Assembly (NCBI GenBank): GCA_040902515.1 | Contig: JBBDXB010000006.1 | Coordinates: 268,280-332,279, forward strand | Direction of reading: 5' to 3' | DNA length: 64,000 nt | From: Patescibacteria group bacterium | GTDB taxonomy: Bacteria; Patescibacteriota; SICC01 | Shown: one piece after another, positions 20,313 through 39,230 of the stretch | How the letters are laid out: each line of letters begins with the position of its first letter | Numbering within the stretch: the first letter of the stretch is position 1 | Translations under genes and position numbers: made by a program | The notes under the pieces: generated by a model | The model's input: only the letters and a program-made list of their open reading frames with translations | Told to the model about the DNA's origin: nothing | The model's database searches: none

Positions 20313-20334
20313 GCTTGCCTGATAAAATGGGTGC

Positions 20335-20955: not shown

Positions 20956-20969
20956 GCGGCCCGGTCCGA

Positions 20970-22712: not shown

Positions 22713-22954
22713 CGGCCTCCGCCGAGCAGCTCCTTGAGCACCGCCCGGGCTTGTTCATGACGGTCGGTGGCAGCCTGTGATTCGGTCATCAGGCGGACGA
22801 TCATCGTGTCACCCTCCGATACCCGGGGCGCGGCCTCCCGCGGCCACTCGAACGTCTTCCCGTCCAACGACAGGACGATGTGGCGATCGGAGACCGATAC
22901 GACGGTGGCTTGGCGATCATGTGCGTTCATTGTAGTACGGGTGCCTGGTGAGGA
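22709..22954 (-). CDS. Small hypothetical protein upstream of and overlapping the VanW gene
   Basis: ORF whose stop overlaps the VanW start (4 nt). TATACT box 7 nt upstream of the ATG at 22954. Start is uncertain (alternatives 22990, 22930). Confidence 0.3.
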   Translation of the reverse strand, partial: SSPGTRTTMNAHDRQATVVSVSDRHIVLSLDGKTFEWPREAAPRVSEGDTMIVRLMTESQAATDRHEQARAVLKELLGGGR

Positions 22955-22996
22955 CATCTCAGTATACAAGCCTCCGTGGGCCATATGCACGTCCGA

Positions 22997-24139
22997 CTAC
23001 CGGAGCGCCGATTCGTAGACCGCCAGCGTCTCCCGGGCGGTCTTCTGCCAGGAGTACCGCTTGACCCTGGCAAGGCCGCGGCGGCGGAGCGTCCGGCGGA
23101 GCGCCGGATCGAACAGCGTCCGTTCGACGACACGCGCTACGTCGGCGGTATTCCGGGGGTTGAAGAACGCCGCGGCGTCGCCGAGGATCTCGGGCATCGG
23201 CGGCGCGTCGGACGCCGCGACCGGCGTGCCGCAGGCCATCGCTTCGAGCGGCGGCAGGCCGAAGCCCTCGGTGAGCGACGGGAACGCGAAGGCATCGGCG
23301 GCGGCATAGTACCGGGGCAGGTCCTCGTCATCCACGAACCCCGTGCAGGTCACCGCCTCGGACAATCCCAACGAACGGATGGTACGGGGGATGATCGGGA
23401 ACGCCGGGTCGCGCTTGCCGACCAGGATCAGCCGCACCGCCGGGTGCTTCCGCCGTAGCAACCGGAACGCCTTGAGCAGCCGGACGAGGTTCTTGTGCTC
23501 CCGCCACTGTCCCGTGTACATCACGAACGGGTCGGCGAGGCCGCGCTCCCGCCGGAACGCCGTGACCTCCGCCCGGGACAGCGGCTTGAACCGCGGCTCC
23601 ACGGCTTCGTAGACCACTTCGATCTTCCCGTCGAACGCCCGGAAATCCCGGGCGATGATCTTCCGCTGGTACTCCGAGATGGTGATGATCTTCCGGCTGT
23701 TGCGGATCCCGGCCCGGACGACCGCCCGCATCGGTCCGTGTTTCAGCTTGGAAAGCCGGCTGCGGCCCGCGTACCGGAGCAGGGTAAGGTCGTGGACCGT
23801 TACCACGAAGGGATCGTGGTAACGGATCGGCAGGTTGAAGTTGGTGAAGTGCATCAGGTCGAGGCGGGCCCGGGACAGCTCACCGGGAAGCAGCATCTGC
23901 TCACGGAATGAGTAGTGCGGCGTCCGGGTGACGACGGTCTCGAACCGCGGCCCGCGGTGCGGGAACGACCGGGCGTCCTCGGGGCGGAGGAACACCACGA
24001 ACGTGTGCGGCGTCCGAACCGCGGCCAGGTGGCTGATCAGCTCGCGGGTGTACCGGGCCAATCCCGCCGAGCCAAGTCCGTGGAACCGGGCGTCGATGCC
24101 GATCCGCTTGCCCGCGGTGGCGGCGCGGCGAGGACTCAC
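22997..24139 (-). CDS. Glycosyltransferase family 4
   Basis: C-terminal GT-B motif FAFPSLTEGFGLPPLEAMACGTPVAASD. Confidence 0.8.
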   Translation of the reverse strand: MSPRRAATAGKRIGIDARFHGLGSAGLARYTRELISHLAAVRTPHTFVVFLRPEDARSFPHRGPRFETVVTRTPHYSFREQMLLPGELSRARLDLMHFTNFNLPIRYHDPFVVTVHDLTLLRYAGRSRLSKLKHGPMRAVVRAGIRNSRKIITISEYQRKIIARDFRAFDGKIEVVYEAVEPRFKPLSRAEVTAFRRERGLADPFVMYTGQWREHKNLVRLLKAFRLLRRKHPAVRLILVGKRDPAFPIIPRTIRSLGLSEAVTCTGFVDDEDLPRYYAAADAFAFPSLTEGFGLPPLEAMACGTPVAASDAPPMPEILGDAAAFFNPRNTADVARVVERTLFDPALRRTLRRRGLARVKRYSWQKTARETLAVYESALR

Positions 24140-25359
24140 GCCGCCCTCCGGCGCGGGAGCGCGGCCAGCACGAACACCAGCATGAATATGATCGCGAGGT
24201 CGTTCTTGAGCACGGGCGTGTCCACCAGCCCGTGGGCGAGGATCGCGGCAGCCATAGCGGCCGCGGACACGGCCCAGCGGTCACGGCGGCGCCAGAGAAC
24301 GGCCGCCAACGTGGTGAGGAGGCCGGCCAAGCCGGCTACCGTCGCGAGCCCCCATTCCGTCCAGGTGACCAGGAAGAGGTTGTGGGCATCCGGCGCGCGC
24401 GGCACGATGAACCGGCGGAGGTCCTCGTCGTCACCGACCCGGGCCCGAACCTCGTCCTGGAAATACTCGGGTCCGGCACCGAGCAGCGGCCGCTCAGCGA
24501 TGACCGCGGCAGCGGTCTTCCACAGCACGGGCCGCGTCGAGAACCGGTCGTCGCGGTCGGCGTTCAGAAGGATTCCGGTGACAAGGAGCGCCCCGATGAC
24601 CATGGCGGCGGTAATCCGCTTCCGCCAAGCCGGGCCGCTGCGCAGGAGGGCCAGCACCAAGCCGCCGGCCGCCAAGGCCAGCAGGCCGCCGCGGGATTGG
24701 CTCCCGGCCAGCAGCGCCAGGCCGAGCACGGCAGGGCCGAACCGGGCCAGCCGGGAAAGGCGGCCCGGCCACCCCAGGACCAGCAGGGTCAGCGGTACCG
24801 TCAGGTGGGCCATGAAATTCGGTGACTGGAACGGCCCGGCCAAGCGGCCGTCGTACGAGAGCGCCGACCCGCCGGCCGCCAGCACGGCTGTCCACGCAGC
24901 GGCCACGCCGATCGCACCGATCGCACCGTAGAGGAGCGGGCGAACCGGCTCGACCTTGAATACGGAGCGGGCAGCCACGAAGAAGACCGCCGGCTCCAGG
25001 AAGAACGCGCGCCAGAGGCCGAGGGCCTGTTTCGGGTCCGGTGCGAGGACCGCGGCCAGAAGCGAGCCCAGCACCCACAACGCCAGCCAGGGGTCGAACG
25101 GCGAGCGGACGGGGCGGTACCGCGGCCACCGGCTCAGCACGCCCAGCACCACCGCTCCCAAGATCAGCTCAAGCAGCGTGGTCGGCACGCCGAGCGAACC
25201 GCGCACCTGGTAGAGCGGCAGGGCGGCCACCACCAGGGCGATCCCCCAGTCCGCACGGCGGCGGGCGAGCAGGAACGCACCGACCGCGGCGGCGGCGATC
25301 GCCAGCCACCCTATCCCCGAAATCATGATCGTTTCCTCCGTGCCGATGAACCCGTTCAT
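24136..25359 (-). CDS. O-antigen ligase/polymerase-like (Wzy_C domain) membrane protein
   Basis: More than 10 TM segments, with GSQSRGGLLALAAGG and AHNLFL motifs of the Wzy_C family. Confidence 0.65.
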   Translation of the reverse strand: MNGFIGTEETIMISGIGWLAIAAAAVGAFLLARRRADWGIALVVAALPLYQVRGSLGVPTTLLELILGAVVLGVLSRWPRYRPVRSPFDPWLALWVLGSLLAAVLAPDPKQALGLWRAFFLEPAVFFVAARSVFKVEPVRPLLYGAIGAIGVAAAWTAVLAAGGSALSYDGRLAGPFQSPNFMAHLTVPLTLLVLGWPGRLSRLARFGPAVLGLALLAGSQSRGGLLALAAGGLVLALLRSGPAWRKRITAAMVIGALLVTGILLNADRDDRFSTRPVLWKTAAAVIAERPLLGAGPEYFQDEVRARVGDDEDLRRFIVPRAPDAHNLFLVTWTEWGLATVAGLAGLLTTLAAVLWRRRDRWAVSAAAMAAAILAHGLVDTPVLKNDLAIIFMLVFVLAALPRRRAA

Positions 25360-26687
25360 CGCCGGCTCCGTCCGGCCGGCAGCGTCACCGCCACCAGCAA
25401 CAGCCAGGGCACCAGCAGGAGCGTGTAGAGCAGTACGTTATTGAAGAAGGAAGCGGCGATAAACGCGAGGGTAAACCACAGCAGTGCGGTCGCGATCCAG
25501 GCGTCCTCGCCTCTGCCGCCCGCCACCCCGAACAGTCCACGGAGGACCTGCACCAGGAATGCCAGCATGAGCCCTAGGCCGACCAACCCGGTCGTCGCCC
25601 AGATGTTCAACAGCGAGATGTCCGAGCCGTGGCTGGAATTGCGCCGTACGATTGTCCTGCCCTGTTCGTCCTGTTCCTCCACCGGGGCGAAGCCATACGC
25701 GTTATACCCCACGCCGATCACCGGATTCTGCAGAGCCAATTCGAAGCCTTCCTGGACGCTGCTGATCCGCGTAGAGCCGGTGGGATCACATTCCCGGTCC
25801 CTCCTTTCATCGCACTCGAAGCCCTCGTCGGAATACCGGGACGTATCGGCCAGCGAAGGTACGGTCTCGAACCGGTCGGACAGCCTGGTGGGAACGAACA
25901 GCGCGGCAACGAATACCGCCGCGATGAGAAAGGCGGCCAAACGGCTACGTTTCCAGGCTATCGCGGGAATCGCGATCAGTCCCGCGACCCAGGCACTGCG
26001 GGAATACGTCAGGTACAGCGCGAGCCAGCCGGCGGCGAACAGCACCAGGTACAGCCTCGCCCTACTCCGGTCCGGCTTGAAGCAGTACTTTGCCAACACG
26101 AAGCCCATTGCCAGGATCGCGAACATACCGAAGAGGTTCGGGTCATAGAAGGTGGAGAGGAGTCTTCCGATGTGGGGATCCCATCCCTCCGATCTCATGA
26201 AACCGAAGTGCGGGTACCGGAGGAGGATCAGGAACCCGAATCCGATCAGGGCAACGGCCGCTGCCGTGAACCATTCGTGCACGGGAACCCGGAATCGCCG
26301 GGCTTCGAATCCGAAACCCCACGCCAGGAAGAACGCGGCCGCCAGGCGCGCAAGGTATCCGGCCGCGATCAAAAGCTCCCGTGTCTCGTGTGCCGCTGCG
26401 TTCACGAGCAACACGAGAGTGGCCCAACCCAGGAACAACGCGCTCCACTTCCATGCCGGGTGACGCCATACGAACGCTCCGAACGCACGGAGCTGTTTCA
26501 AAGCGACCAGACGTATGGCAAATCCCGCCAGCACCAGCACTAGCGCGAGGTCTATCGGAGTGACCGCCAGCTGGGAGCCCGTTACCGGACGGAACTGCAG
26601 CGCCTCGCCGGTGATCAGGGAGCCGAAGATGATTACCGAGGCGATCACGGGCCAGTGTCGGGAAACGAACGTTCGCATGGTTCCCAT
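25356..26687 (-). CDS. O-antigen ligase/polymerase-like (Wzy_C domain) membrane protein
   Basis: Polytopic. LTYSRSAWVAGLIAIP and a large periplasmic loop. Paralog of the neighbouring gene. Confidence 0.65.
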   Translation of the reverse strand: MGTMRTFVSRHWPVIASVIIFGSLITGEALQFRPVTGSQLAVTPIDLALVLVLAGFAIRLVALKQLRAFGAFVWRHPAWKWSALFLGWATLVLLVNAAAHETRELLIAAGYLARLAAAFFLAWGFGFEARRFRVPVHEWFTAAAVALIGFGFLILLRYPHFGFMRSEGWDPHIGRLLSTFYDPNLFGMFAILAMGFVLAKYCFKPDRSRARLYLVLFAAGWLALYLTYSRSAWVAGLIAIPAIAWKRSRLAAFLIAAVFVAALFVPTRLSDRFETVPSLADTSRYSDEGFECDERRDRECDPTGSTRISSVQEGFELALQNPVIGVGYNAYGFAPVEEQDEQGRTIVRRNSSHGSDISLLNIWATTGLVGLGLMLAFLVQVLRGLFGVAGGRGEDAWIATALLWFTLAFIAASFFNNVLLYTLLLVPWLLLVAVTLPAGRSRR

Positions 26688-26696
26688 GATACTGAA

Positions 26697-27788
26697 CTAA
26701 CGGCCCGCTGACCGACGGATCGCCTCGAGCGCCCGGTCCGCGGCAACGTCCCAGGAGAACTTCCGGGCACGGGTACGGCCGCGTTTGGCCAGACTGGCAC
26801 GGCGCGGTGCGTTTCCGAGGAGCGTCTTCAGGCCGCTCCGAATGGAACGGGCGCTGCGCGGCTTGCAGTACAGAGCGGCGTCGCCCGCCAACTCCCGCAG
26901 CGCCGGCGTGTCCGATAGCAGCGCCGGCAGGCCGGACTGCATCGCCTCGAGGGCCGGCAGGCCGAACCCTTCGTAGCGGCTCGGGTAGCAGAACGCGAGA
27001 GCGCCGGCATAGAGTGCCGGAAGCTCGTCATCGCCGACGTCGTCCAGCACCCGGGTCGAAGTCGCCGTGGCACACGCCCGTTCGACCGGGCCGTATCCCC
27101 AGCCCCATCGCCCCACGATGACCAGCTCCGTCTTTCCACGGACCTCCGCCGGCAGCCCTTCGAACGCCTCGATCAGCGCGGCGAAGTTCTTGCGCGGCTC
27201 GATCGTCCCCACGGCAAGAAGGTAGCGCGCCGGCAGGTTCCGTCGCGCCCGGACGGCAGCCTGAGCCTTGGCGGAAACCTTCCGTCCGAACGCCGGACCC
27301 GCGGCCAGCGGCGCGACGGTCACGGGCGGGAGTTTCCGGTACCGCGCCGCCAGGTCGGCCTTGGTCGTCTCGGAGTTCACGATGACCCCGGCGGCCTTGC
27401 GGAGCGCCCGCCGGAGCAGGGCCTGTTCCATCAGCCGTGCCTTCAGGCCCACGCCGCCGGCCTTCGAGAACGCGATCAGGTCATGGACGAACAGCACGAC
27501 GGGCTTCCGTACGAACCGGGACGTCAGGAAGCTGGTCGCGGCGAAGTAGACGTCGCAGGCGCGGTTCGCCGCCGCCGCCGTGCGCCGGTGCCAGAGGGGC
27601 CCTTTGCCGGAGACGATCCGCCAGCGGCAGTTCGCCGGCAGCTCCCAGTCGAAGCGGCGATCGGAGAACAGCAGCCAGGTGTCATCCGGCGAGCGGTCGG
27701 CCAGCCGCGGCACCAGTTCCGCGACCACCCGGCCTTTGCCGGCACGCCGCTCGGGTGCGGCTTCACGTACGTCGACTCCGATTACCAT
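26697..27788 (-). CDS. Glycosyltransferase family 4
   Basis: YPSRYEGFGLPALEAMQSGLPALLSD. Confidence 0.8.
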   Translation of the reverse strand: MVIGVDVREAAPERRAGKGRVVAELVPRLADRSPDDTWLLFSDRRFDWELPANCRWRIVSGKGPLWHRRTAAAANRACDVYFAATSFLTSRFVRKPVVLFVHDLIAFSKAGGVGLKARLMEQALLRRALRKAAGVIVNSETTKADLAARYRKLPPVTVAPLAAGPAFGRKVSAKAQAAVRARRNLPARYLLAVGTIEPRKNFAALIEAFEGLPAEVRGKTELVIVGRWGWGYGPVERACATATSTRVLDDVGDDELPALYAGALAFCYPSRYEGFGLPALEAMQSGLPALLSDTPALRELAGDAALYCKPRSARSIRSGLKTLLGNAPRRASLAKRGRTRARKFSWDVAADRALEAIRRSAGR

Positions 27789-27793
27789 ACGTC

Positions 27794-28978
27794 CTATTCT
27801 ACGGCACCGGCGGGCGGTTCCGGAGTATCCGTCGCGGGCTTCGGTACCCGGACGTTGCCGAGCCCGAGCGCCCGGTAGTACGTGCCGAGCGTCTTCTGCG
27901 CCGTCCGTTCCCAGCTGAACCCCTTCGCCTGTTCATGTCCCGCTTCGACCAAGCGCTCCTGGAGCTTCTCGTCGCCAAGCACCCGTTCGATCGCCAGGCG
28001 CATTCCCTTCTCGTCGTCGGGGTCGAAGTAGAGCGCCGCCGTGCCGCCCACCTCCGGCATCGAGGAGGTATTCGAGGAGAGTACCGGGGTGCCGGAAGCC
28101 ATCGCCTCCAGCAGCGGGATGCCGAACCCCTCGAGGTGGGACGGGAACACGAACGCCTTCGCACCGGCGTAGAGCGACGGAAGCTCCTCGTCGGGAACGT
28201 AGCCGGTAAGGATTACCCGGTCACCCAGGCCAAGCTTCCGGAGCAGCTCCTCGGTCTCGTCGAAGAGCCAACCGTGGCCTCCCACCACCACCAACTGCTC
28301 GCGGACCTTCTTGCGAAGCGCCGCGAACGCCAGCAACAACGTCTTCAGGTTCTTGCGCGGCTCAAGCGTCCCCACGGTAAGGATGTAATCCCGGTCGATG
28401 CCGTGCTTCTTGAGGATCCGGGAAAGGCGGTCTGGCTCCACGGGCTCGTGGAAAGCCGGGCTCGCTGCCAGTGACGTGACAGCGATCTTCGTTTGCGGGA
28501 CCGAGAACGTTTCCACCAATGCCTCGCGAGTCGCTTCGGAAATCGCGATGATATGTGCGGCCCGCGCCAGTGCCTCCGGCACGAACCGTTCCAGATACCG
28601 CAGGTTCTTCGGTTCGACGTATTCCGGGTGCTCGACGAACGCCAGGTCATGGACCGTCACCACGAACGGCTTTCGGGTCGGCGGAGCCACGTAGTTGGTG
28701 AAGTGCCAGAGGTCGCAGGGCGGCCCGGGCAAATCCACCGTCGGCCAGCCGACCGTCTTCCAGACGAGCTGCCAGGCCCGGCGCTGCTTGCCGGTGAACG
28801 GGAAATTGTGCGCGTTCATCCCCGTGCCGGTGAGCGGCGTGCCCCACAGGTGATAGCGGTTGCCCCGGTCGAGCTGCAGCATCGCCCGGACGAGCTCGCG
28901 GATGTAGACGGCGGTCCCGCCCGAAGCCGTCCGCGATTCCAGCCACCGGGTATCGATGCCGAAGGTATAGGCGCTCAC
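27794..28978 (-). CDS. Glycosyltransferase family 4
   Basis: [35 protein letters not shown]. Confidence 0.8.
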   Translation of the reverse strand: MSAYTFGIDTRWLESRTASGGTAVYIRELVRAMLQLDRGNRYHLWGTPLTGTGMNAHNFPFTGKQRRAWQLVWKTVGWPTVDLPGPPCDLWHFTNYVAPPTRKPFVVTVHDLAFVEHPEYVEPKNLRYLERFVPEALARAAHIIAISEATREALVETFSVPQTKIAVTSLAASPAFHEPVEPDRLSRILKKHGIDRDYILTVGTLEPRKNLKTLLLAFAALRKKVREQLVVVGGHGWLFDETEELLRKLGLGDRVILTGYVPDEELPSLYAGAKAFVFPSHLEGFGIPLLEAMASGTPVLSSNTSSMPEVGGTAALYFDPDDEKGMRLAIERVLGDEKLQERLVEAGHEQAKGFSWERTAQKTLGTYYRALGLGNVRVPKPATDTPEPPAGAVE

Positions 28979-28982
28979 GGGA

Positions 28983-29954
28983 TCAACCGCCGGCTATGAG
29001 CTTGCGGTCCGCGTCTACCATCAGGCGGATCAGCTCTTCGAAGCTGGTCTTCGGCTTCCAGCCGAGCTCCTTCTCCGCCTTGGAGTAATCGCCGACCAGC
29101 TGGTCCACCTCCGCCGGCCGTAAGAACTTCTTGTTGAGCTTCACATACTTCTCCCAGTCGAGACCGGCCTGGTCGAACGCCACCTGCACGCACTCCTTCA
29201 CGGAGTGGGTCTCGCCGGTCGCGATCACGAAGTCCTCGGACCGGTCCTGCTGCAGCATCAGCCACATCGCCTCCACGTAGTCCTTGGCGTAGCCCCAGTC
29301 GCGCTCGGCGTCGAGGTTGCCGAGTTCGAGCGAATCGCGGACACCTTCCTTGATCGCGGCCGCGTGCCAGCTGATCTTCCGGGTCACGAACTCCAGGCCG
29401 CGCCGGGGACTCTCGTGGTTGAAGAGGATGCCGCTCGAAGCATGGAGGTCGTAGGACTCGCGATAATTCACGGTGATGAAGTGGCCGTACGCCTTGGCCA
29501 CTCCGTAGGGCGAACGAGGGTAGAACGGCGTCAGCTCGGTCTGCGGTATCTCGCGGACCTTGCCGAACATCTCGCTGGAAGAGGCCTGGTAGAACCGTAC
29601 CTCCGGACAGACCTCGCGGACCGCCTCGAGCAGGCGCGTCACGCCCACGCCGGTGAACTCGGCCGTGAGCACCGGCTGCGTCCAGGACGTGTGCACGAAC
29701 GACATCGCGGCGAGATTGTAGATCTCGTCGGGCTTGGCCTCGCGGAGCGTGTCGCCGAGCGACCGCTGGTCGAGCAAGTCGCCCTGATGCAGGGTGATCT
29801 TGTCCCGCAGGTGCTCGACCCGTTCCAGCTTCTCGGTCGAGGAACGGCGGACCATGCCATGGACCTCGTATCCCTTGTCGAGTAGCAGCTCGGCCAGATA
29901 CGAGCCGTCCTGGCCGGTAATGCCCGTGATTAATGCTCGTTTAGCTTTTGCCAT
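28983..29954 (-). CDS. gmd: GDP-mannose 4,6-dehydratase
   Basis: [33 protein letters not shown]... with the SDR catalytic YxxxK, typical of Gmd. Confidence 0.88.
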
Positions 29955-30885
29955 ACGTGTTCCGTGCGCTTTCCAATAGCTCCTTCAGGGTCTGTTCGAT
30001 CGGTATCGCCGGCTCCCAGCCGAGGGCCCGGAGCTTGGCCGCGTCACCCTCGACTCTCGGGGTGTCCGACGGCCGGAGGCGGTCTTCGTCAACGACGACA
30101 TTTATTGTAGCAGGTGACGTTTCCAGCATGGCTTCGAGCAAGTGCCCGATCGAGTGCGCTTCGCCGGACGCCACGTTGTACGCCTCGCCCGGTACGCCTC
30201 GCTCCATCAGGATCCGGTAGGCGTCCGCGACGTCCCGGACGTCGAGGAAGTCCCGGGCGGCGTCGAGATTGCCGACGCTGATCTCCCCGCTGCCGCGGGC
30301 CTCGATTTCCGCGATCTGCGTGGCGAAGTCGGGGAGCGCGAAGCCGCCGCGTTGGCCCGGCCCGGTGTGGTTGAACGAGCGGGCGATGATCACGGGGAGC
30401 CCCCGTTTGTCCCCGAACCAGCGGGCCAGCTCCTCGCAGCGGGCCTTGCTCTCGCCGTAGGGATCGTTCGGGTTGAGGTGTTCGGTCTCCGCGATCGGCT
30501 GGCGGTCCTCCGGAACGCCCCCGTACACGCCGCCCGAGCTGACCAGGAGGACCCGCGGCTTGGGATCAAGCGCGGCCGCGCCTTCGAGGACCGATCGCGT
30601 CGTCCCCACGTTGCCGGTGACGGCGGCGCCGGGATCTTCCCAGGAGTGGCCCGGAGACACCTCCGGCGCGGCAAGGTGGAAGATGCCTTCCGGTGCCGCG
30701 TCCAGGACCGCTTGCTGCGTCGCCGCTTCGTCGGCCAGGTCGCAGACGACCTCCGCCGCCCCCTCGATGCCGAGCGAGCCGGGCTTCCGCACCAGCCCGG
30801 TCACCTCATGCCCGTCCTTGAGCAGTCCCCGTACCAGGTGTTTCCCGGCGAAGCCGCCGGCACCGGTCACGAGGTACCGGCTCAT
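29941..30885 (-). CDS. NAD-dependent epimerase/dehydratase; probable GDP-4-keto-6-deoxy-D-mannose reductase (Rmd-like)
   Basis: [13 protein letters not shown] Rossmann motif. Overlaps gmd by 14 nt. Functional assignment is by context. Confidence 0.6.
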
Positions 30886-32006
30886 CGGGATCCTCCGAGC
30901 ACGTCACGATAGACGGCCACCGTCTCCTTGGCCGTCCGCCGCCAGGAGAACTTCCGTGCCCGCTGCCGGCCGGCCGCGGCCAGCTCTTTCCGGAGCTTCG
31001 GTTCGTCGGTGATCCGGACCAGAGCCTTGCTAAGCGCCGCCGTATTCTCCGGATCAACCGCCAGCGCAGCATCGCCGTATACCTCCGGCATCGACGAGGT
31101 ATTTGAAGTCACGACCGGCGTACCTGACGCCATCGCTTCCAGGATCGGAATCCCGAATCCCTCGTAGTGCGAAGGGAAGACGAAGGCCTCGGCACCCTGG
31201 TAGAGCGCCGGCAGGTCCGGGTCGGGCACGTAGCCGAGGAACGTGACCCGGTCCGTGATGCCGAGCTCGCCGATCAGCCGTTTGGTCTCGTCGAAGTACC
31301 AGCCCTGGCCGCCCGCGATCGCCAGCCGGAGGTCCAGGCGGTCCTTTTGCGCAGCATACGCCTTGAACAGGGTCGCCAGGTTCTTCCGTGGCTCGAGGTT
31401 GCCGACCGCCAGGAAGTACGGGTCCCGCAGCTTGTAGCGGCGTAGCACCTTCCCCCGGTCGGCCGCGGAAAGGCGCCTCGAGAACCGCTCGTCCGCGGCA
31501 AGGTGGGTGACGACGATCTTGTCTTCCGGCGTGCCGTATTGTTCGATCACCGCCCGTTTCGTGGCCTCGGAGATCGCGAGCACCCGCTCGGCACCGGCGA
31601 TCGTCTCCGGCAGGTACTTCCGGAGCCGCTTCAGCGTTTCGGCCTCCGTGTACTCCGGATACCGCTCGAACGCCAGGTCGTAGACGGTCGTGACGTACGG
31701 CCGGCGGGTCGGCATGGTCGAGTAGTTCGGGAAGTGCCAGAGGTCGGGATCGGGACCGAGCGTCCGCGGGGACGGCCAGCGCAGGAAGTGCCAGTAGTTC
31801 TCCATGCCCCACTGGAAGTAGCCGCTGAACGGGTGGTGGACCGTGCCTTTGATCATCCGCGGCGGCTTGGTGCCAAAGAGGTGGTACGCCAGGCCGGGAT
31901 CGGCCTCCGGCAGCGCGCCGATCAAGCCCACCAGGTACTTGGCCACGCCGCTGTGCAGGCCGGCGAGCCAGCGGGTGTCGATGGCGATCGTGGGCTTGTC
32001 GCTCAT
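30882..32006 (-). CDS. Glycosyltransferase family 4
   Basis: [35 protein letters not shown]. Confidence 0.8.
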
Positions 32007-32827
32007 CGGCGGATTGCACGAATCATTGCCGTACTGCCAAGCATGTTGCTGACCGGCTTCCGCGCGTCCAGCTCATACACGAAGCCGGCCTCGTCGAGAA
32101 TCTGCAATAGCTCGGCAAGGCTGTTTTCTTCCACGTGATGGAACTCCAGTAGGATCGTTCGCACCTGCTTGAGCTTCGCCTTGGCTGCCCGAAGCACCCG
32201 GACTTCGCTACCTTCTATATCTACCTTGAGAATGTCCGCAGGTTGTTTCAAGACCGACGCCAGCGTGGTGGCCGGGATCTGCTGCGAGCGGATCGAACCT
32301 TTCGGCCCCAGCTTCTTGCGAAACGTCCGGTTGATCGACTGGGTGGTGTCGCCTGCGAAGTCCGGGTCGCCGTACAGCGTGACGGTTCCCGCCTTATCGG
32401 AGAGCGCCTTGCGGATAATCGTGGCGTCCTCGAAGCCGTTCGTGCGGAGGTTGTCCTCAAGGTACGTGGCGGTATTGCTGTCAGGTTCGATGCAAACGAT
32501 TGAGGCCTTCGGATTCTGGCGAAGCAGGTACAGTGCGGCCAGACCGATGTTGGCACCCGCATCCACGATCCGTGGCGAGCGACCCTTGGCGCGCGCGCGA
32601 TAATCGTTGGTCAGCAGTACCTCGCTGTACAGATGCCTGAGCAGCCAGAGCGAGGGGTAATACACCCGGAACCCGAACAGCTTGAGTGGTCGCTTGCGGC
32701 GCGGCCATACGGTGAGCCAAAACAGGACTTTCAGATATCCGCGGTAGAGCAGCCATCGGTCCGGGTTGCTACGGTCAGACAAGAAACGGGCGTAGTGCCA
32801 GGTGGTGGTGATTGCTCGATATGCCAT
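32003..32827 (-). CDS. FkbM family methyltransferase
   Basis: IVDAGANIGLAALY SAM-binding motif and overall FkbM-family pattern. Confidence 0.7.
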   Translation of the reverse strand: MAYRAITTTWHYARFLSDRSNPDRWLLYRGYLKVLFWLTVWPRRKRPLKLFGFRVYYPSLWLLRHLYSEVLLTNDYRARAKGRSPRIVDAGANIGLAALYLLRQNPKASIVCIEPDSNTATYLEDNLRTNGFEDATIIRKALSDKAGTVTLYGDPDFAGDTTQSINRTFRKKLGPKGSIRSQQIPATTLASVLKQPADILKVDIEGSEVRVLRAAKAKLKQVRTILLEFHHVEENSLAELLQILDEAGFVYELDARKPVSNMLGSTAMIRAIRR

Positions 32828-32841
32828 TGCTCAAGGATACC

Positions 32842-34281
32842 TTACGTTTTAGACACCCGCTTCCGCAGCATGCCGACGAGCTCTTTCAACGTATCCTTGT
32901 CCACTGCCCGGAACAGAACCAGCCCGCCGAGATACGTCGTCGAGCCAGCCAGGAATGCCAGGAGGGGAAGGTGCATGAGCGGCAGCATCACCGCGACCAT
33001 CACGACGGCCGCCGCCACTGCCCGCAGGGGAATGGCCGGGGACAGGGAGAAGCCGGCCAGCTTCCGCGTGTACCGATAATAGAAGGTGATCAGGAAGACC
33101 TCGGAGATAAGCGTGGCCACGGCGGCTCCGATGAACCCGTAAGGCGGGATCAGGAACAGGTTGAGCACGATGTTCAGCACCAGGCTGTACGTGCTGATCC
33201 GCAGCATCACCTTTTGCTTGCCGAGGGCGAGCAGCAATGAGCCGAGGGCGAGGACGCTGAACGTGAACGGCATGGTCAGCAGCACGACCCGTAGCGCGTC
33301 CGATCCGGCTACGAATTCCTGGCCGCCGACGATCCGCATGACGAAGGGGGCGATGGTCAGCGAGCCAGCCGCGATACCGAGTCCGCCGATGAAAAGGATG
33401 TTGAAGCTCTTCTGGGTGAATGCCCGGGCCTTGGCGGAACTCTCCTTGAGCCGCCGGTTAAGGATCGGGAACGTCGAGTTGTTGAAGAACCCGGAAAAGA
33501 CCATGAGCAGTTCGAATACTTTGAAGACCGCGCCATAGATGCCGACATCCGCATTGGTCTTGAAGAAGGACAGCAGCAGGATGTCGACCCGGAAGTATAG
33601 CTGTACGACCACGAGCGTCAGTCCGTAGGGCAACGCTTCCCTGAGCAATCCTTTCCAGAGGATCAGGTCTTTCATCGGCTTGACCCGGACGTACCTCCGG
33701 ACGAGCCAGGTCGATACCAGGAACGTCACGAAAGCGCCGAGGGACGCGGTCGCGACCACGGCATAAAAACCAAGGCCGAGTGCCGCCACCGCTATGACGG
33801 CGCCCAGCGCGATGGCTCGACCTGCTAAGTCGGCGATCGCGGCATACCCCATTACCAAACGCGACTGGAAGACGGCCATCATCGCCGAGTTGAGCAGGCC
33901 GAAGAGATGCGCACCGCCGGCGATTATGATGCCGATCCGAACATCGGGTTCATACGGCAACAGCCAGGAGACACCTATGGCAATCAGCAACACGATGACA
34001 CCAAGGAGCCCGCGGAGTGCCAGGGTATTGGAAAAGATCTCCTGCGTGCGGCGGAGATTCTTGCTCATTTCACGGATAGAGATCGTGAACAGCCCCATGT
34101 CCGCGGCAATACCGAAAATCGAGAGGTAGACGAGGACTAGCGTAAACTTGCCGTAACCCTCCGCCCCGAGGTACCGGGTCAGGATGGCCACGGACACAAG
34201 GCCCATCACGATCACGAACGTCTTCGCGATCGACTGCACCAACGTGTTCAGTGCTATTTTCTTCGTAGCGCTTTGGTTCAT
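32842..34281 (-). CDS. Polysaccharide/O-antigen flippase (Wzx, MOP superfamily)
   Basis: 479-aa protein with about 12-14 TM segments and an N-terminus (ALNTLVQSIAKTFVIVMGLVSVAILTRYLGAEGYG) typical of Wzx/polysaccharide biosynthesis proteins. Confidence 0.75.
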   Translation of the reverse strand: MNQSATKKIALNTLVQSIAKTFVIVMGLVSVAILTRYLGAEGYGKFTLVLVYLSIFGIAADMGLFTISIREMSKNLRRTQEIFSNTLALRGLLGVIVLLIAIGVSWLLPYEPDVRIGIIIAGGAHLFGLLNSAMMAVFQSRLVMGYAAIADLAGRAIALGAVIAVAALGLGFYAVVATASLGAFVTFLVSTWLVRRYVRVKPMKDLILWKGLLREALPYGLTLVVVQLYFRVDILLLSFFKTNADVGIYGAVFKVFELLMVFSGFFNNSTFPILNRRLKESSAKARAFTQKSFNILFIGGLGIAAGSLTIAPFVMRIVGGQEFVAGSDALRVVLLTMPFTFSVLALGSLLLALGKQKVMLRISTYSLVLNIVLNLFLIPPYGFIGAAVATLISEVFLITFYYRYTRKLAGFSLSPAIPLRAVAAAVVMVAVMLPLMHLPLLAFLAGSTTYLGGLVLFRAVDKDTLKELVGMLRKRVSKT

Positions 34282-34339
34282 GCAGAATTCATTGTATGCA
34301 ATGAAGCAACGAACCGATATCTGCTAGGATAGTTTCGTT

Positions 34340-34552
34340 ATGAGCGATCAGCTGAAAACTCTCACCGGTTCCATCGCCCTCGGCATCCTGGTCGTCCCCT
34401 CGACCGCGCATGCCTACATCGACCCGGGAACGGGCAGCGTGATCATCCAGGCGATCATCGGTGGCGTAGTAGCGGTAGGGTTCTTCCTGAAGACCAACTG
34501 GCTGCGGGTGAAGCAGCTGGTACGGCGCGTATCCGGCGGGAAGAAGAAGTAG
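34340..34552 (+). CDS. Small membrane protein (hypothetical)
   Basis: 70 aa, with a signal/TM segment and a second hydrophobic helix. Ends 8 nt before the sulfatase-like gene. Confidence 0.4.
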   Translation: MSDQLKTLTGSIALGILVVPSTAHAYIDPGTGSVIIQAIIGGVVAVGFFLKTNWLRVKQLVRRVSGGKKK

Positions 34553-34559
34553 CACTTCC

Positions 34560-36169
34560 ATGAATGCCAAGAAGCTCGCAGGAATATCCCGCCGGTTCTT
34601 CGAGGTGCTTTCCTCCGAAGCCATGGTGACATCCGCGGTTCTTGCGAGCTTCTACGCATTGCCGATCATTCTCTTCACTAAGAAGAACATCCATTCCATG
34701 CCGATCTCGGAAGCGGTCGCGCTCTTGGTGGCTTCGTTGCTGTTGGGCCTGGCCGTGGTCGCGGTGTGCTTCCTGCTCTTGCGGAGCTGGATGAAAGCCG
34801 CGATCTTGGCGGCAGTCTTAGCCTTTCCCCTCCTGCAGTATCTCGATCTCAAGGGGTGGGTCACCTCTGCGCTGCCGATCGGGGATGCTGTCGCGGTCGG
34901 CCTTTTGTTCCTAGTTCTACCTGCCGGTGCATTCCTGCTGGTTAAACGGCTGGGATTCGAGCGGACCCGGATGCTGGCAAGCTACTTGGCGATCGTCGGC
35001 CCACTGATCGCAGCGTACTCCCTGGCCCAGATCTCGATTTCCTTGGTCAATAATTCCGGGACGACCGTGACGGTCGATAGCGAAGACCTGCGGAGTACCG
35101 CGGTGAAGCCGCCCGAACGGAAACCGGACATCTACTATCTGGTGTTTGACCGGTACGAAGGGCAGATCGGACTCAAGGAAAGCTTCGACTTCGACAATAG
35201 CGAGTTCCTGGATGAGCTTCGTTCCCTGGGATTCTACGTGGCCGATCAGAGTTTCAGCAATTACCCGACGACCCGACCATCGTTAGCCTCCTCCCTCAAT
35301 GGCGGCGAATTAGTGGTGCATGGTTCGGAGCACATAAAATCAGCCAAGCCGCTCAACCCACTGTTTTACGAACCTGCGGTCGCCGCGTTCCTGAAAGACA
35401 AGCTCGATTACTCGTTCGCTGAGATCGGGTCTTGGGGACCGGACACGCAAACATCCCGGATCGCGGACCGGAATCCGCGGCCGGCCTGGCAGATCGACTT
35501 CTTCGGAGAGCATCACCTTCCGTACTATTCCGGGATCTTTCTGGTAGGCACCGCGCCGGGGAACGCGTACGACCGGTATGGCGGGACTAACTTCTCCCAG
35601 TACCAATCCCACGGCGACATCTTCCTGGACCAATTGGATGCGATCAGACAGCAAGCGAAGCATGACGAACCCACGTTCGTCTTCAGCCATCTCCTGATGC
35701 CGCATCCACCGTTGGTGTTCGACGAGCGGGGAGGCCCGAGCGACTCCGGTCTCCGAATGATCAGCGGTTCCTGAAACAGCTTCAGTTCACTAACAACCAC
35801 ATACTTGCCCTGGTCAGGGACCTGCTCGCCCAGCACAAGGATGATCCCCCTATTATCATCCTCGCGGCAGATGAGGGAGAGTACGAAAAACTCGGAGAGG
35901 ATCAGGATTTATCTAATTTTTCAGCCGGAGCCAGCGACCAGGCGCTCAGGAAGAAAACAAACATCCTGGCAGCGTTCCGTTTTCCCGGAGAGCGACATGA
36001 AGACCTTTATCCGACGATCACGCCAGTCAACTTCTTCCGGGTAACGTTCAACGAATTCTTCGGAACTGACCTGGAGCTCCAGCCGGATCAAATCCGTACG
36101 GTACGGTCGAGCGACATGCCTCTGGGCTGGGTAGATGTCACCGAACGCGTGCGGCAAGACTCAAAGTAA
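34560..36169 (+). pseudogene. LtaS/sulfatase-like (alkaline phosphatase superfamily) membrane protein, frameshifted near 35.73-35.77 kb
   Basis: Frame 1 (34560..35774) gives five TM segments plus PDIYYLVFDRYEG...FVFSHLLMPHPP. The protein then continues only in another frame as NDQRFLKQLQFTNNHILALVRDLLAQHKDDPPIIILAADEGEY...RVRQDSK*, ending at 36169. This indicates an indel. Confidence 0.6.
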
Positions 36170-36182
36170 CTAACCGGATCGG

Positions 36183-37589
36183 CTAAGCGACATGCGCGCG
36201 CCGCGACAGCAACGCGCTCAGCAGCACCGCCCCCAGCAGTAGTCCCGGCACCTGGCTCCAGAAGAAGTGGTCGGCGGCGGCCATCAGCACGAAGGCGCCG
36301 GTGACGGAGAGCAGCATGAATTCGATGGAGCGCTCGCGGCGGTTCCGCGACGAACTGCGGTGGAAGCGCCTACCGAGCCGTGCCGCGAACCATGCCAACA
36401 GTGCCCCGCCGAGCAGGCCGAGCTCCGCGGTCGCGAGCAGCGGCACGTTATGCACGGGCTGGTACTGGTACGCCGGCCGGCCGGCATCGAGCAGGTGTGC
36501 CACCGGGACGAAGTTGCCGATGCCCGCGCCGTGCGGCTGGGTGGTGATCACCAGGGCCGCCTGGCGGTAGCCGACGGCGCGGTTGGTGATGCCGGTCTCG
36601 TCCCGCGACTCGAGGCTGGTGCGCTGCATCAGTGCCGGGGCCAGCACGAGCGCGACCGCGAGCGTCGCGGCGGCGGCGATTCCGGCGGCGGGCGGCAGCC
36701 ACTGCCAGCGCCGCCAGGAAAAGAGCGCGACCAGCACGCCGCCCACCAGCGTGGCGATGATCGCCACCCGGGAGAACGTCACGAGCAGTCCCGCCCCGAG
36801 CAGGGCCAGGAGCAGCGCGAAGCCGAGCTGCCGCAACCGCGACCGTTCGCCGTTCTTCCAGAAGACGACCGTGCCGACCCAGAACGCGGCCAGGGACAGG
36901 TAGGCGGCCAGCACGTTCGGGTGCGGAAGACTGCCGTAGGCGCGGACCAGCGGCCCCTCGATCGTCGCGACCTTGGCGATGCCCGCCTTGTCCGGCGCCA
37001 GGCCGCTCTCGCCGAGCCGCCAAAGGCCGAAGTCATGTTGTGCCGCGTACTGCGCGATGCCCCAGACGGCCTGGAGCGCGGCGGCCGCGGTGAACGTCCA
37101 GAACACCGCCCGCAGGAACGCGCGGTCCCGGAGCTCGTACGCCAGCATGGCCGCCAGGGAGAACGCGACGGCGAGGTGGATGGCCCCTACCCCCGCCAGC
37201 AACGGCTCCGGCGCCCAAAGGATGGAAGCGGCCGCCAGCACTACCAGCCCGAGAAGCGGGGCTAGTAGGGAAGCGTTCTGCCGCAGCACCCTCCGGTGCC
37301 GGGCGTCCCGGAGTCGGAGGGCGCTCCATGCCGCGGCCGTCACCAGCACCAGCCCCTCGATCAGGTAAAAGACCGGCACGGCGAAGCTGTTCCGCGCTCC
37401 CGCGACCGTGGCGTTTGCCTCGGAGATGATCCAGACGCTTCCGACGGGAAGCAGGAAGACGGTGAGCAGCAAGAGCCCGCGGACCCACCGGTCCGACGTG
37501 CGTTCGCCCAAGCGCATCCAAGCAGCCTTCATGAGCCCATTGTAGAGGAGGTGGCGCACTACAGGCTCCCGGCTTCTTGCCAGAAGCAC
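36183..37589 (-). CDS. O-antigen ligase/polymerase-like (Wzy_C domain) membrane protein
   Basis: Polytopic, with TFSRVAIIATLVGGVL and a periplasmic loop. Confidence 0.6.
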   Translation of the reverse strand: MLLARSREPVVRHLLYNGLMKAAWMRLGERTSDRWVRGLLLLTVFLLPVGSVWIISEANATVAGARNSFAVPVFYLIEGLVLVTAAAWSALRLRDARHRRVLRQNASLLAPLLGLVVLAAASILWAPEPLLAGVGAIHLAVAFSLAAMLAYELRDRAFLRAVFWTFTAAAALQAVWGIAQYAAQHDFGLWRLGESGLAPDKAGIAKVATIEGPLVRAYGSLPHPNVLAAYLSLAAFWVGTVVFWKNGERSRLRQLGFALLLALLGAGLLVTFSRVAIIATLVGGVLVALFSWRRWQWLPPAAGIAAAATLAVALVLAPALMQRTSLESRDETGITNRAVGYRQAALVITTQPHGAGIGNFVPVAHLLDAGRPAYQYQPVHNVPLLATAELGLLGGALLAWFAARLGRRFHRSSSRNRRERSIEFMLLSVTGAFVLMAAADHFFWSQVPGLLLGAVLLSALLSRRAHVA

Positions 37590-37665
37590 TATGTGACTGG
37601 GCTCAAGGACATGGTGGGAAGTGGTGTAGCTTTGGGGGTGCTTCGGTAAGAAGTCGGGAGCCTGT

Positions 37666-38121
37666 TTACTGCTCGACCTTCTTGATCATCACCCGCCGGC
37701 CACCGCCTTCGCCGATCGATTCGGTGGTCACCTCGGGATCGTCCCGCAGCTCCACGTGCACCAGCCGCCGCTCGTACGAGGTCATCGGTGAGAGCACGGT
37801 CAGCCGGCCAGTCTGTTTCACCTCTTCCGCCTTCTGCTTGGCGGTCTCCTTGAGCTGCTCCTGCTGGCGGCTGCGGTAGCCGTCCACGTCCACGATCGCG
37901 GTCGGCGAGCCGCCGGCGCGTGCGACCATCACCCGCAGCACGTGCTGGAGCGAACGGATCGCTTCGCCGCGGTGGCCGATCAGCGTCGCCGGATCCTCGA
38001 CGTCGACGATCTCCAGCAGCGGCGGGTCGTCCTCGCGCTGCTCGACCGTGGCATCTATCCCCATCTTCGCCAGGAGTTCGGCGAGCAGCTCACGGGGTTG
38101 GGTGAGGGTCTGCGTCGTCAT
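37666..38121 (-). CDS. jag: Jag/KhpB-like RNA-binding protein (KH plus R3H)
   Basis: 151 aa; lies downstream of yidC and overlaps it by 4 nt. C-terminal R3H-like ERRLVHVEL. Confidence 0.7.
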   Translation of the reverse strand: MTTQTLTQPRELLAELLAKMGIDATVEQREDDPPLLEIVDVEDPATLIGHRGEAIRSLQHVLRVMVARAGGSPTAIVDVDGYRSRQQEQLKETAKQKAEEVKQTGRLTVLSPMTSYERRLVHVELRDDPEVTTESIGEGGGRRVMIKKVEQ

Positions 38122-38981
38122 TTCCGGCCCTTGCCCTTACTGCCCTTGCCGCGCGATCGCACGGTCACCTGAGCGCCTTTCTTGCCTCGCTTTCCCCTGG
38201 CCTGCGTGCCTTTCGTTTTCCGCCCTCCCTTGCCGTTCACGGGGTCGGACGGGTTCGCCTCGTTCCAGTCTTCCACGGCAACGGCCCGTTCCGCCGACAG
38301 CGGATGCCGCCGGATGATGTAGTACTGCTGGAGGATCGTGAAGATGGTGGAGCTGGCCCAGTAGAGCGGCAGGGCGGCCGGCAGGGTGATCGCGAACACC
38401 AGCGTCAGCACCGGGAACAGGAACATCAGTTGCCGGCTCATGCCCGGTATGTTGCCGTCCTTCGGCATCATCATCCGCGCCTGCCAGAACATCACGCCCG
38501 CGGTGACCACGCCGAGGATCATGTTCGAAGGCTGGAAGCCGACCGTCGAAAGGTCGAGGACGCCGAAGAACGCGGTGTCGACCGGGCCGGGGTGCGGCAC
38601 GAACGAATAGAGGTGGTCGAACGCCTTGCCGTCGATCACGTCCTTGATCGCGAAGAAGATCACGATCAGGAACGGGATCTGGACCAGCGTCGGCAGGCAC
38701 GAAGCCGCCGGGTTCACGCCCTCCTTCTGGTAGAAGGCCATCATCTCCTTGGCCAGCGTCTCGCGGTCGTCCTTGTGCTTCTCCTGGAGTTTCTTGAGCT
38801 CCGGCTGCAGCGCCTGCATCCGCCGCTGCGCCTTGAACGCCTTGGCAGAGAACGGCCCCACCGCGAACCGGACCAGCAGCGTGAGGATGATGATCGCGAT
38901 GCCGAAGTCGCCGGTCAGGCCGTACAGCCAGATCAGGGCGTTGAATATCGGGTCGAAAAAGATGGTCGAAAGCAGTTCCAT
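38118..38981 (-). CDS. yidC: Membrane protein insertase YidC/Oxa1
   Basis: GIAIIILTLLVRFAVGPF...QPELKKLQEKHKDD...MMAFYQKEGVNP. Confidence 0.88.
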   Translation of the reverse strand: MELLSTIFFDPIFNALIWLYGLTGDFGIAIIILTLLVRFAVGPFSAKAFKAQRRMQALQPELKKLQEKHKDDRETLAKEMMAFYQKEGVNPAASCLPTLVQIPFLIVIFFAIKDVIDGKAFDHLYSFVPHPGPVDTAFFGVLDLSTVGFQPSNMILGVVTAGVMFWQARMMMPKDGNIPGMSRQLMFLFPVLTLVFAITLPAALPLYWASSTIFTILQQYYIIRRHPLSAERAVAVEDWNEANPSDPVNGKGGRKTKGTQARGKRGKKGAQVTVRSRGKGSKGKGRK

Positions 38982-38990
38982 GGTTCCTCG

Positions 38991-39230
38991 TTATCTCCTT
39001 ACGGGGTCAAATCCGCCGGCGGCGCCGGGGTGGCAGCGGCCGATCCGCTTCATGCCGAGCCAGAGGCCCCGGCGTACCCCGAGCCGCTCCACGGCTTCCT
39101 TGGCGTATTCCGAGCAGGTCGGATGGAACCGGCAGGTGCCGTACGGGCGCCGGCCCTTGAGCCAGCCGTGATCCGGCGAGAGGGTCCGCTGGTACAGGAC
39201 GATCAGGCCGATGACGGCGCGCTTGGTCAT
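38991..39230 (-). CDS. yidD: Membrane protein insertion efficiency factor YidD
   Basis: [11 protein letters not shown] signature. Confidence 0.85.

Follow-up and report, generated by a model that had tools for sequence, protein, structure and literature searches.

The window analysed here, a 64,000-nucleotide stretch of contig JBBDXB010000006.1 (assembly GCA_040902515.1, Patescibacteria group bacterium), contains at positions 22997-37589 a glycan locus with three genes for Wzy_C-domain membrane proteins, which we call A, B, and C. With moderate confidence, we read it as the principal locus for surface-glycan assembly in a monoderm Saccharibacteria cell, working in a Wzx/Wzy-dependent-like manner with B as the polymerase and A and C as ligases. 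Wzx/Wzy-type glycan assembly is known; unusual are the three conserved paralogs with the fold of the O-antigen ligase WaaL, a protein family spread across the candidate phyla radiation (CPR) in which aspartate takes the place of the ligase histidine, and an ancient pairing of the B and A genes. Genes were called from a listing of open reading frames (ORFs) and codon-position GC content and were then compared with Pfam, NCBIfam, and PDB. Related loci from other genomes are numbered (L001-L008 etc.), L007 being the closest relative of the window.

All three proteins are encoded on the minus strand and exceed the gathering score of the Wzy_C family (PF04932, 31.7 bits), as the first-pass annotation of this DNA had proposed: A (24136-25359) scores 63.7 bits, B (25356-26687) 65.3 bits, and C (36183-37589) 47.4 bits. 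A overlaps B and the glycosyltransferase family 4 (GT4) gene GT4_1 by 4 nt each, and C is an orphan gene directly downstream of yidC-jag. Their mutual identity is 17-20% in full-length profile-profile alignment (hhalign E 6e-20 to 7e-22), by which they are deep paralogs; within Saccharimonadia, each has its own conserved set of orthologs with 45-93% identity. The earlier suggestion of several polymerase or ligase specificities is supported by this deep paralogy, by the differing catalytic signatures, and by the differing evolutionary behaviour described below. Single-sequence PDB searches with A, B, and C gave nothing useful. Family profiles of A and B matched WaaL (7TPG), the sole family member with a solved structure, at E 2.4e-10 and E 6.8e-7, respectively, and the C profile found nothing in PDB. 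AlphaFold2 models of C (pLDDT 91.8) and B (pLDDT 86.3) likewise had 7TPG as their best PDB fold match (E 7.5e-7 and 1.2e-8, respectively; TM-scores 0.55-0.63). RodA and FtsW were next best (TM-scores 0.36-0.52), and no FTSW_RODA_SPOVE match was obtained in Pfam. None of the Wzy_C or GT4 proteins reached a curated NCBIfam cutoff; for the RfaL model NF012031 (cutoff 277 bits), B scored 20.4 bits and A and C gave no match.

In E. coli WaaL, R215, R288, and H338 correspond to R224, R298, and H349 of the protein O-oligosaccharyltransferase PglL and are common to both enzymes (PMC3643930), so these residues alone do not define WaaL. At the aligned positions, A has R223, R276, and H326, and C has R274, R337, and H380. 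In the C family, R274, R337, H380, and E389 are invariant in 35 homologs. R276 is invariant in the A family, H326 is present in every homolog aligned there (25 of 26), and a conserved C-terminal motif (H376-x3-D380-x-P382...K-N-D) follows the Wzy_C domain. B keeps both arginines (R230 and R307) and has an aspartate, D356, at the histidine position; in a statistically significant alignment with 7TPG, D356 stands opposite the histidine of the WaaL "HN" motif, and 78 of 80 B homologs have aspartate in this column. R230, R307, T365, G367, and N417 are invariant or nearly so among B homologs. GWDPH and DPN were the search patterns for these homologs, and invariance there therefore proves nothing. 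Profile alignments of A, B, and C with E. coli K-12 WaaL were insignificant (hhalign E 0.03-0.2) and served solely as a consistency check of the residue mapping. The polymerases of the SEDS (shape, elongation, division, and sporulation) family use an essential extracytoplasmic aspartate, which by analogy is consistent with, and no proof of, a polymerase role for the aspartate variant B.

Between closely related loci, B varies in another way than A and C. Protein identity to L007 is 98% for Gmd, 95% for GT4_2, 94% for Rmd and GT4_4, 93% for GT4_3 and A, 91% for C, and 88% for GT4_1, and it falls to 78% for Wzx and 59% for B. At the nucleotide level, GT4_4, rmd, gmd, GT4_3, GT4_2, A, and GT4_1 are 85-95% identical per gene and C is 92% identical, compared to 76% for wzx and 68.5% for B. 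In a 200-nt sliding window, identity to L007 is 56-70% exactly within the B ORF and 88-94% on both sides, and the comparison with L008 gives a likewise bounded dip. The A protein of the window follows the locus phylogeny (93% identity to L007, 89% to L008, and 76% to L006). In contrast, the B protein is 68% identical to that of L006, 59% to L007, and 57% to L008, although the L007 and L008 proteins share 82% identity, and the B allele tree is incongruent with the A tree. The sharp, ORF-bounded drop in identity and the mismatch of the two trees together indicate recombinational allele replacement of B. Diverging from L007 along with B are the wzx allele and the gene for an FkbM-family methyltransferase, whose position is occupied by an unrelated GT4 gene in L006 and L007; B and A lie in one operon with wzx. 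By analogy, such a bounded replacement of a polytopic gene, with wzx diverging and a modifying enzyme exchanged alongside, is the typical wzy pattern of O-antigen and capsule loci. A (93% amino acid identity) and C (91%) lack this polymerase-type pattern; their conservation suggests that they behave like ligases, tolerant of different glycans.

The window is from a high-GC Saccharibacteria (CPR) genome. The best homologs of A, B, and C all come from Patescibacteria metagenome-assembled genomes (MAGs), including proteins 100% identical to B and C over 99% and 96% of their length, respectively, and the closest loci in a GTDB scan are labelled Candidatus Saccharibacteria or Saccharimonadia. Saccharibacteria are ultra-small monoderm episymbionts without lipopolysaccharide (LPS) or outer membrane, and no Lpx, Lpt, or Waa genes were found among the scanned window ORFs. 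As lipid A-core is lacking in a CPR monoderm, neither A nor C would be WaaL in the strict sense.

Constant flanks around a changing centre are the layout of a serotype-type glycan locus, and this is the architecture found here. Between 34281 and 20970 on the minus strand, the genes overlap or stand close together and form one long operon. It reaches past 22997 to include a small gene, 6 nt after GT4_1, and a VanW gene that overlaps the small gene by 4 nt. The small gene (22709-22990, minus strand) has no Pfam match and encodes a conserved cytoplasmic protein of about 73 amino acids (from an internal methionine), which lies between GT4_1 and VanW in the relatives as well. The last gene of the operon (20970-22712, minus strand) combines a PG_binding_4 domain (62.7 bits) with a VanW domain (145.7 bits) and encodes a putative peptidoglycan L,D-transpeptidase. 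The VanW domain has been shown in C. difficile to define an L,D-transpeptidase family (PMC11348318), and the operon thus couples glycan assembly to a wall enzyme. In the relatives, the frame reads oriC-yidC-jag-C ... GT4_3-GT4_2-B-A-GT4_1-small gene-VanW-two conserved genes-TrpRS (tryptophanyl-tRNA synthetase), and the yidC-jag-C order is also found in L004 and L005. The variable segment lies between C and GT4_3, where sugar genes, methyltransferase, and extra transferases differ by genome. The window and L006-L008 carry gmd, rmd, and GT4_4 in this segment; L005 has rmlABCD, two FkbM genes, and family 2 glycosyltransferases (GT2s); L004 and L001 encode GT2s, a nucleotidyltransferase (NTP-transferase), methyltransferases, an LPG_synthase_TM protein, and a GT-C-like membrane protein. 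GC content is 0.57-0.69 across the locus and dips only over the wzx/sulfatase segment, and the conserved synteny in relatives rules out recent horizontal transfer of the whole locus. A promoter and terminator scan of 20000-39500 returned fewer sites than shuffled sequence and was not used. The two conserved genes between TrpRS and VanW (19374-20955, plus strand; 312 and 206 amino acids) are of unknown function and are syntenic in all close relatives; the 312-residue protein gave faint nucleotidyltransferase-fold matches only, and in L087 a 313-residue protein with a similar faint match precedes a distant C-family gene.

The sugar genes of the variable segment point to GDP-D-rhamnose. Gmd (GDP-mannose 4,6-dehydratase; 28983-29954, minus strand) reaches 442 bits against TIGR01472 (cutoff 415). 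The adjoining short-chain dehydrogenase/reductase (29941-30885, minus strand) is annotated as Rmd, GDP-4-keto-6-deoxy-D-mannose reductase; its best solved relatives are 2PK3 (GDP-6-deoxy-D-lyxo-4-hexulose reductase, E 9e-55) and 6X3B (GDP-6-deoxy-D-mannose reductase, E 3e-44), and it scores only 50 bits against the Fcl model (cutoff 500). With an equivalog match for Gmd and a reductase nearest to solved Rmd and not to Fcl, the GDP-D-rhamnose assignment of the first-pass annotation holds, although the reductase could alternatively be a GDP-6-deoxy-D-talose synthase. The FkbM-family methyltransferase (32003-32827, minus strand; TIGR01444 90.7 bits, cutoff 37.7) is presumably a sugar O-methyltransferase, and the first gene of the operon (32842-34281, minus strand) encodes a Wzx-type flippase (Polysacc_synt 91 bits; weak MurJ and MatE matches). 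NCBIfam and Pfam confirm these two and gmd as originally named, and the five GT4 genes counted at that time reduce to four within 22997-37589, all on the minus strand and identified by Pfam. GT4_4 (30882-32006; Glycos_transf_1 141 bits) is linked to the cassette, being 94% identical in L007 and at most 46% identical in genomes without gmd/rmd. GT4_3 (27794-28978) and GT4_2 (26697-27788) belong to the conserved core: the former is 59-93% identical in all Saccharimonadia relatives, whatever their sugar cassette, and the latter 41-95% identical in relatives. GT4_1 (22997-24139) is the most widely conserved partner of B. Supply genes elsewhere in the window encode a phosphoglucomutase/phosphomannomutase (PGM/PMM; 14241-15647) and GalU (60049-61005; best PDB match 5J49, E 2e-88). 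A gene for a glycoside hydrolase family 15 (GH15) glucoamylase/trehalase-like enzyme lies at 15717-17597, and in L001-L003 the GH15 and PGM genes come after TrpRS.

In the mechanism that we propose, cytoplasmic GT4 enzymes would build a lipid-linked repeat unit, for which we infer a polyprenyl-diphosphate carrier. As GT4_1, GT4_2, and GT4_3 are conserved across relatives, they probably make a conserved part of the unit. The variable cassette would add D-rhamnose, with Gmd and Rmd converting GDP-mannose and GT4_4 presumably acting as the transferase, and FkbM would add an O-methyl group to the glycan. Wzx would then flip the unit across the membrane, where B, with its WaaL/SEDS-like fold and aspartate in place of the ligase histidine, may polymerise the units, its allele tracking the structure of the repeat unit. 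A, which is translationally coupled to B, and C would take the completed glycan off the lipid carrier and attach it to the final acceptors. These may be a membrane glycolipid, for which TacL provides a precedent, a wall component, or proteins in the manner of PglL or WsaB. The co-transcription of A with an L,D-transpeptidase homolog and the absence of an acceptor gene adjacent to it slightly favour a non-protein envelope acceptor for A; C could serve a second acceptor, possibly proteins.

Several observations weigh against this reading. The polymerase role of B derives from its evolutionary pattern and one residue and not from a family assignment, and B is conserved throughout the CPR (with R175, R230, R307, and D356 invariant), which is unusual for Wzy proteins. 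WaaL was the sole significant PDB match of the B and C models, with no solved Wzy, PglL, or TacL matched, so the fold comparison cannot separate polymerase from ligase roles. In distant members of the A family, the first arginine is replaced by phenylalanine or tyrosine. Among the scanned window ORFs, we found no GDP-mannose pyrophosphorylase, though Gmd needs GDP-mannose, no initiating phosphoglycosyl transferase (Bac_transf or WecA/MraY-type), and no LCP ligase or chain-length regulator; with no priming transferase found in the window, the lipid carrier and the first step of the pathway are assumed. Diversifying selection on a surface-exposed ligase could also have produced the allele replacement of B. 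This last idea belongs to a broader alternative, which we consider very unlikely, in which all three Wzy_C proteins are polymerases for three polysaccharides or else redundant ligases, with B diverging under diversifying selection, e.g. as a phage receptor. It would accommodate the CPR-wide conservation of B, unlike that of a classical Wzy, and the fact that all three proteins match only the generic Wzy_C family, within which Pfam cannot split the two functions. Three polymerases would, however, have to share the single Wzx and single transferase set of the window; strains with differing cassettes have A and C proteins of 91-93% identity, whereas polymerases normally track the repeat unit; and C is found outside glycan loci in distant genomes. 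As for redundant ligases, B diverges in company with wzx and with the exchange of FkbM for a GT4, which speaks for a substrate-linked change and not for selection on surface exposure.

The first-pass annotation had favoured general protein O-glycosylation. In this reading, one or more of the Wzy_C proteins, most plausibly C and/or A, would be O-oligosaccharyltransferases of the PglL, PilO, or WsaB kind that transfer the methylated D-rhamnose glycan en bloc onto pilins, S-layer, or other surface proteins. The analysis turned up no specific evidence for this, but as the acceptor cannot be read from sequence, we retain it as a rather unlikely minority hypothesis. The arginine and histidine residues that A and C retain are common to WaaL and PglL, a monoderm without lipid A-core needs some other acceptor, and in distant CPR genomes C is an orphan with no sugar genes around it, which is often the case for PglL too. 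The best solved relative of Rmd is an Aneurinibacillus enzyme, and the S-layer glycans of Aneurinibacillus and Geobacillus contain D-rhamnose with O-methyl caps. In A, the invariant H376-x3-D380-x-P382 pattern after the Wzy_C domain is reminiscent of H400/E404/P406 of PglL, but this resemblance is confined to a pattern of three residues. Type IV pilins are known substrates of PglL and PilO. The four tandem pilin genes of the window, which had been pointed out as a multi-pilin operon, lie at 56786-58657, about 19 kb from the locus, and encode not type IV pilins but VirB2/TrbC-like T4SS_pilin proteins (PF18895) of a type IV secretion system (T4SS); VirB2-type T4SS pilins are not known to be O-oligosaccharyltransferase substrates, and the link to pilins was rejected. 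No pilA-like gene was found in the scanned window ORFs. The PglL_A motif separates PglL from WaaL, and in 21 of 31 cases the PglL gene has a gene for a type IV pilin or another acceptor beside it or otherwise linked to it (PMC3643930). In the ten family members searched (A, B, C, and seven orthologs), neither PglL_A (PF15864) nor Wzy_C_2 (PF11846) matched at E<=10, although very weak ones could have been lost to the HMMER filters. A, B, and C have no gene for a type IV pilin or another acceptor beside them; their neighbours are GT4 genes, the small cytoplasmic protein, VanW, jag, and a sulfatase-like pseudogene. The coupling of A to the VanW transpeptidase homolog within one operon, the lack of adjacent acceptor genes, and the missing PglL/TfpO signatures together tilt slightly against a protein acceptor for A. 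The arrangement that the first-pass annotation had named as contradicting protein glycosylation, with all three proteins being canonical Wzy polymerases and Wzz/Wza nearby, is not what we found either.

A different acceptor is implied if the locus encodes a lipoglycan or teichoic-acid-like pathway, in which A, and perhaps C, would act like TacL and attach the polymer to a glycolipid made by a conserved GT4 from scavenged diacylglycerol, yielding an LPS-like, strain-variable lipoglycan. We regard this as possible but improbable. TacL sets the precedent of a monoderm Wzy_C protein that ligates an undecaprenyl-diphosphate (Und-PP)-linked polymer to glucosyl-diacylglycerol (PMC5727136). The conserved transferase core with its variable outer cassette mirrors the logic of LPS core and O-antigen, and the window encodes GalU and PGM, enzymes able to provide UDP-glucose. 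GT4_1 has sub-threshold NCBIfam matches to IagA/BgsA (52.6 bits), monoglucosyl-diacylglycerol synthase (45 bits), and GlcNAc-PG synthase (60 bits), but these scores are far below the curated cutoffs of 400-480 bits. Moreover, A, B, and C exceed the cutoff of no curated NCBIfam ligase model, and the sole LtaS-like candidate is frameshifted and lies in the variable cassette.

The proposed Wzx/Wzy-like assembly can be compared with several characterised systems. As in the Gram-negative Wzx/Wzy O-antigen pathway, wzx, glycosyltransferase, and nucleotide-sugar genes share one locus with conserved flanks and a variable centre, alleles of the polytopic B and of wzx are exchanged together, the proteins have the WaaL fold, and A and C carry the arginine/arginine/histidine set. 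Unlike in that pathway, a lipid A-core acceptor is impossible in a CPR monoderm, the window yielded no Wzz, Wza, or priming transferase, three WaaL-fold paralogs stand in place of one Wzy and one WaaL, and the candidate polymerase belongs to a family conserved across the CPR with an invariant aspartate at the ligase histidine position. The pneumococcal teichoic acid pathway employs the flippase TacF, a repeat-unit polymerase, and the ligase TacL, which transfers the Und-PP-linked chain to a membrane glycolipid (PMC5727136). It resembles the present system in its monoderm setting, in the flipping and polymerisation, both proposed here, of repeat units on an Und-PP carrier, and in its Wzy_C-domain ligase. 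However, the chemistry here is GDP-D-rhamnose with O-methylation, and neither phosphocholine, ribitol, and teichoic-acid genes nor, in the window, an LCP gene were found. PglL, TfpO (PilO), and WsaB share the Wzy_C domain and the catalytic residues with A and C, and their relaxed glycan specificity fits the conservation of A and C across cassettes; their family signatures and acceptor genes are what sets them apart, as detailed above. The SEDS proteins RodA and FtsW, which rank second among the structural matches of the B and C models, polymerise Und-PP-linked substrates, but the TM-scores are low (see above) and the neighbours here are glycan-assembly genes and not those of the divisome or elongasome. 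Finally, the common polysaccharide antigen of P. aeruginosa is made with Gmd, Rmd, and the GT4 rhamnosyltransferases WbpX/Y/Z and carries a methyl cap. The Gmd-Rmd pair for GDP-D-rhamnose, the GT4 transferases, and the methylation recur in the window, whereas the antigen is exported by the ABC transporter Wzm/Wzt without Wzy, and the locus described here has Wzx and no ABC transporter.

Beyond Saccharimonadia, a search of GTDB species representatives with the B profile yielded 318 relatives, almost entirely from CPR genomes, and locus comparisons were made for the best 80 of them. These are labelled Saccharibacteria, Peregrinibacteria, Gracilibacteria, Kerfeldbacteria, Peribacteria, Levybacteria, Berkelbacteria, WWE3, Microgenomates, and "Patescibacteria group". 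An A-type gene adjoins B in 29 of the 80 CPR loci (directly downstream on the same strand in 27, divergent in two). In many loci, wzx lies 0-2 kb upstream of B, and in Kerfeldbacteria-type loci a VanW gene is found 2.5-4.5 kb farther upstream of wzx. In 14 other loci, which are labelled Peregrinibacteria, Gracilibacteria, Peribacteria, Berkelbacteria, or Saccharibacteria or are unclassified, a GT4_1 homolog (240-310 bits) lies downstream of B at a distance of up to about 3 kb; it is directly downstream in L076 and on the opposite strand in L048. Among 149 ORFs counted around B in 18 diverse loci, GT2 (n = 15), GT4 (n = 12), and Polysacc_synt (n = 11) were the leading families, and Bac_transf, LCP, and Wzz were not among the top 25. 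Distant C-family members are orphans among housekeeping genes, twice near yidC. We tentatively propose, while considering it doubtful in its full form, that CPR bacteria carry an ancient, lineage-wide module of the polymerase B, a WaaL-fold protein with a histidine-to-aspartate exchange, and the ligase A, often near Wzx, a conserved GT4, and VanW within 5-7 kb. This module would build an O-antigen-like, strain-variable polymer on a non-LPS wall or membrane acceptor, and C would be a separate general ligase, possibly for proteins. In full-text searches on CPR or Patescibacteria, we came across no description of the A, B, or C families.

Two side observations concern the sampled B loci. Of the 80, 13 are labelled "uncultured Gammaproteobacteria" (TPA series; L018, L022, L023, L037, L038, L042, L046, L047, L055, L067, L071, L075, and L083). 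As L018, L022, L023, L042, L067, and L075 (except for the A gene) share the Kerfeldbacteria/CPR gene order, the Gammaproteobacteria labels are probably wrong. In Levybacteria-type loci (L037, L041, L046, L065, L070, L079, and L083), B is followed by a conserved series of opposite-strand ORFs of about 240, 140, 470, 285, and 505 amino acids, sizes that would fit an F1 ATP synthase operon.

The variable cassette of the window also contains a gene for a membrane-anchored protein of the sulfatase/alkaline-phosphatase superfamily (34560-36166, plus strand), split by a frameshift. The ORF at 34560-35774 (404 amino acids) covers the N-terminal three quarters of a protein of about 530 residues and has itself no Pfam or NCBIfam match. 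An exhaustive HMMER search found thousands of homologs, with full-length members typically 510-545 amino acids long and matching Pfam Sulfatase at 35-48 bits (cutoff 25). For the last ~130 residues, tblastn located the coding sequence at 35759-36166 in another frame; with protein P0117 as query, the first part aligns in frame 2, ending at 35753, with 46% identity, and the remainder in frame 1, beginning at 35759, with 60%. The location of the two halves in different frames indicates a 1-nt frameshift near 35755, and since both are well conserved, it reflects either an inactivation that happened very recently or a mistake in the assembly; the public record of the protein, P0116 (404 amino acids), has the identical truncation. 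Judged from the translation, a hydrophobic N-terminal region resembling several transmembrane segments precedes what is the Sulfatase domain in homologs. The initial description as LtaS/sulfatase-like therefore narrows to generically sulfatase-like: the family profile gave weak sulfatase matches in PDB and none to LtaS or EptA, and the gene is frameshifted. It is absent from L007. A 537-residue gene next to C in L004 was examined as a counterpart of the 404-residue ORF and rejected, as it encodes a GT-C-like membrane protein without tblastn similarity.

Upstream of C, jag (R3H/KH) and yidC (37666-38981, minus strand; identified by Pfam) lie near rnpA and dnaA. Adjoining them is a replication-origin neighbourhood (39227-44572) with rnpA/yidD-like small ORFs, dnaA (39839-41269), dnaN (41571-42662), recF (42804-43907), dciA (43900-44223), and the gene for a cyclic-di-AMP receptor protein (44243-44572). 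This gene order is the same in L004 and L005, and the adjacency of C and yidC-jag to these genes places this end of the locus at the replication origin. Farther along, the T4SS-like cluster (47941-58657, minus strand) encodes, besides the four pilins, a VirB4/TraG-type ATPase (47941-49959), a PrgI-family protein (50757-51422), and two large VirB6/TrbL-like membrane proteins (51511-53871 and 54037-56634). The ORFs adjoining it at 44611-47941 have no Pfam match except for an M15/GDSL-like hydrolase (45054-46118). On the other side of the glycan locus, a stretch of lower GC content (8020-11816; 0.56-0.58) has few convincing ORFs and five tRNA genes, at 8020-8106 on the minus strand and at 8861-8933, 9941-10013, 10812-10898, and 11727-11816 on the plus strand.

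A life attached to host bacteria is characteristic of Saccharibacteria and other CPR bacteria, and very little is known of their surface chemistry. The locus described here offers testable candidates for their main variable surface glycan: a polymerase-like gene that is swapped between near-identical strains along with the flippase and a modifying enzyme, and two conserved ligase-like enzymes that must act on acceptors other than lipid A-core. The separation of polymerases from ligases within the Wzy_C superfamily is an old annotation problem, and criteria that combine catalytic residues with allele replacement could help to address it. As the histidine-to-aspartate B family and the B-A pair span many CPR classes, results obtained with one cultivable Saccharibacterium should transfer widely. 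Tools for allelic exchange are available in Nanosynbacter and Southlakia. If the B-A module proves to be as proposed, the exchange of B, wzx, and cassette alleles would be a CPR counterpart of serotype switching and could govern the specificity of these organisms towards phages and host cells.

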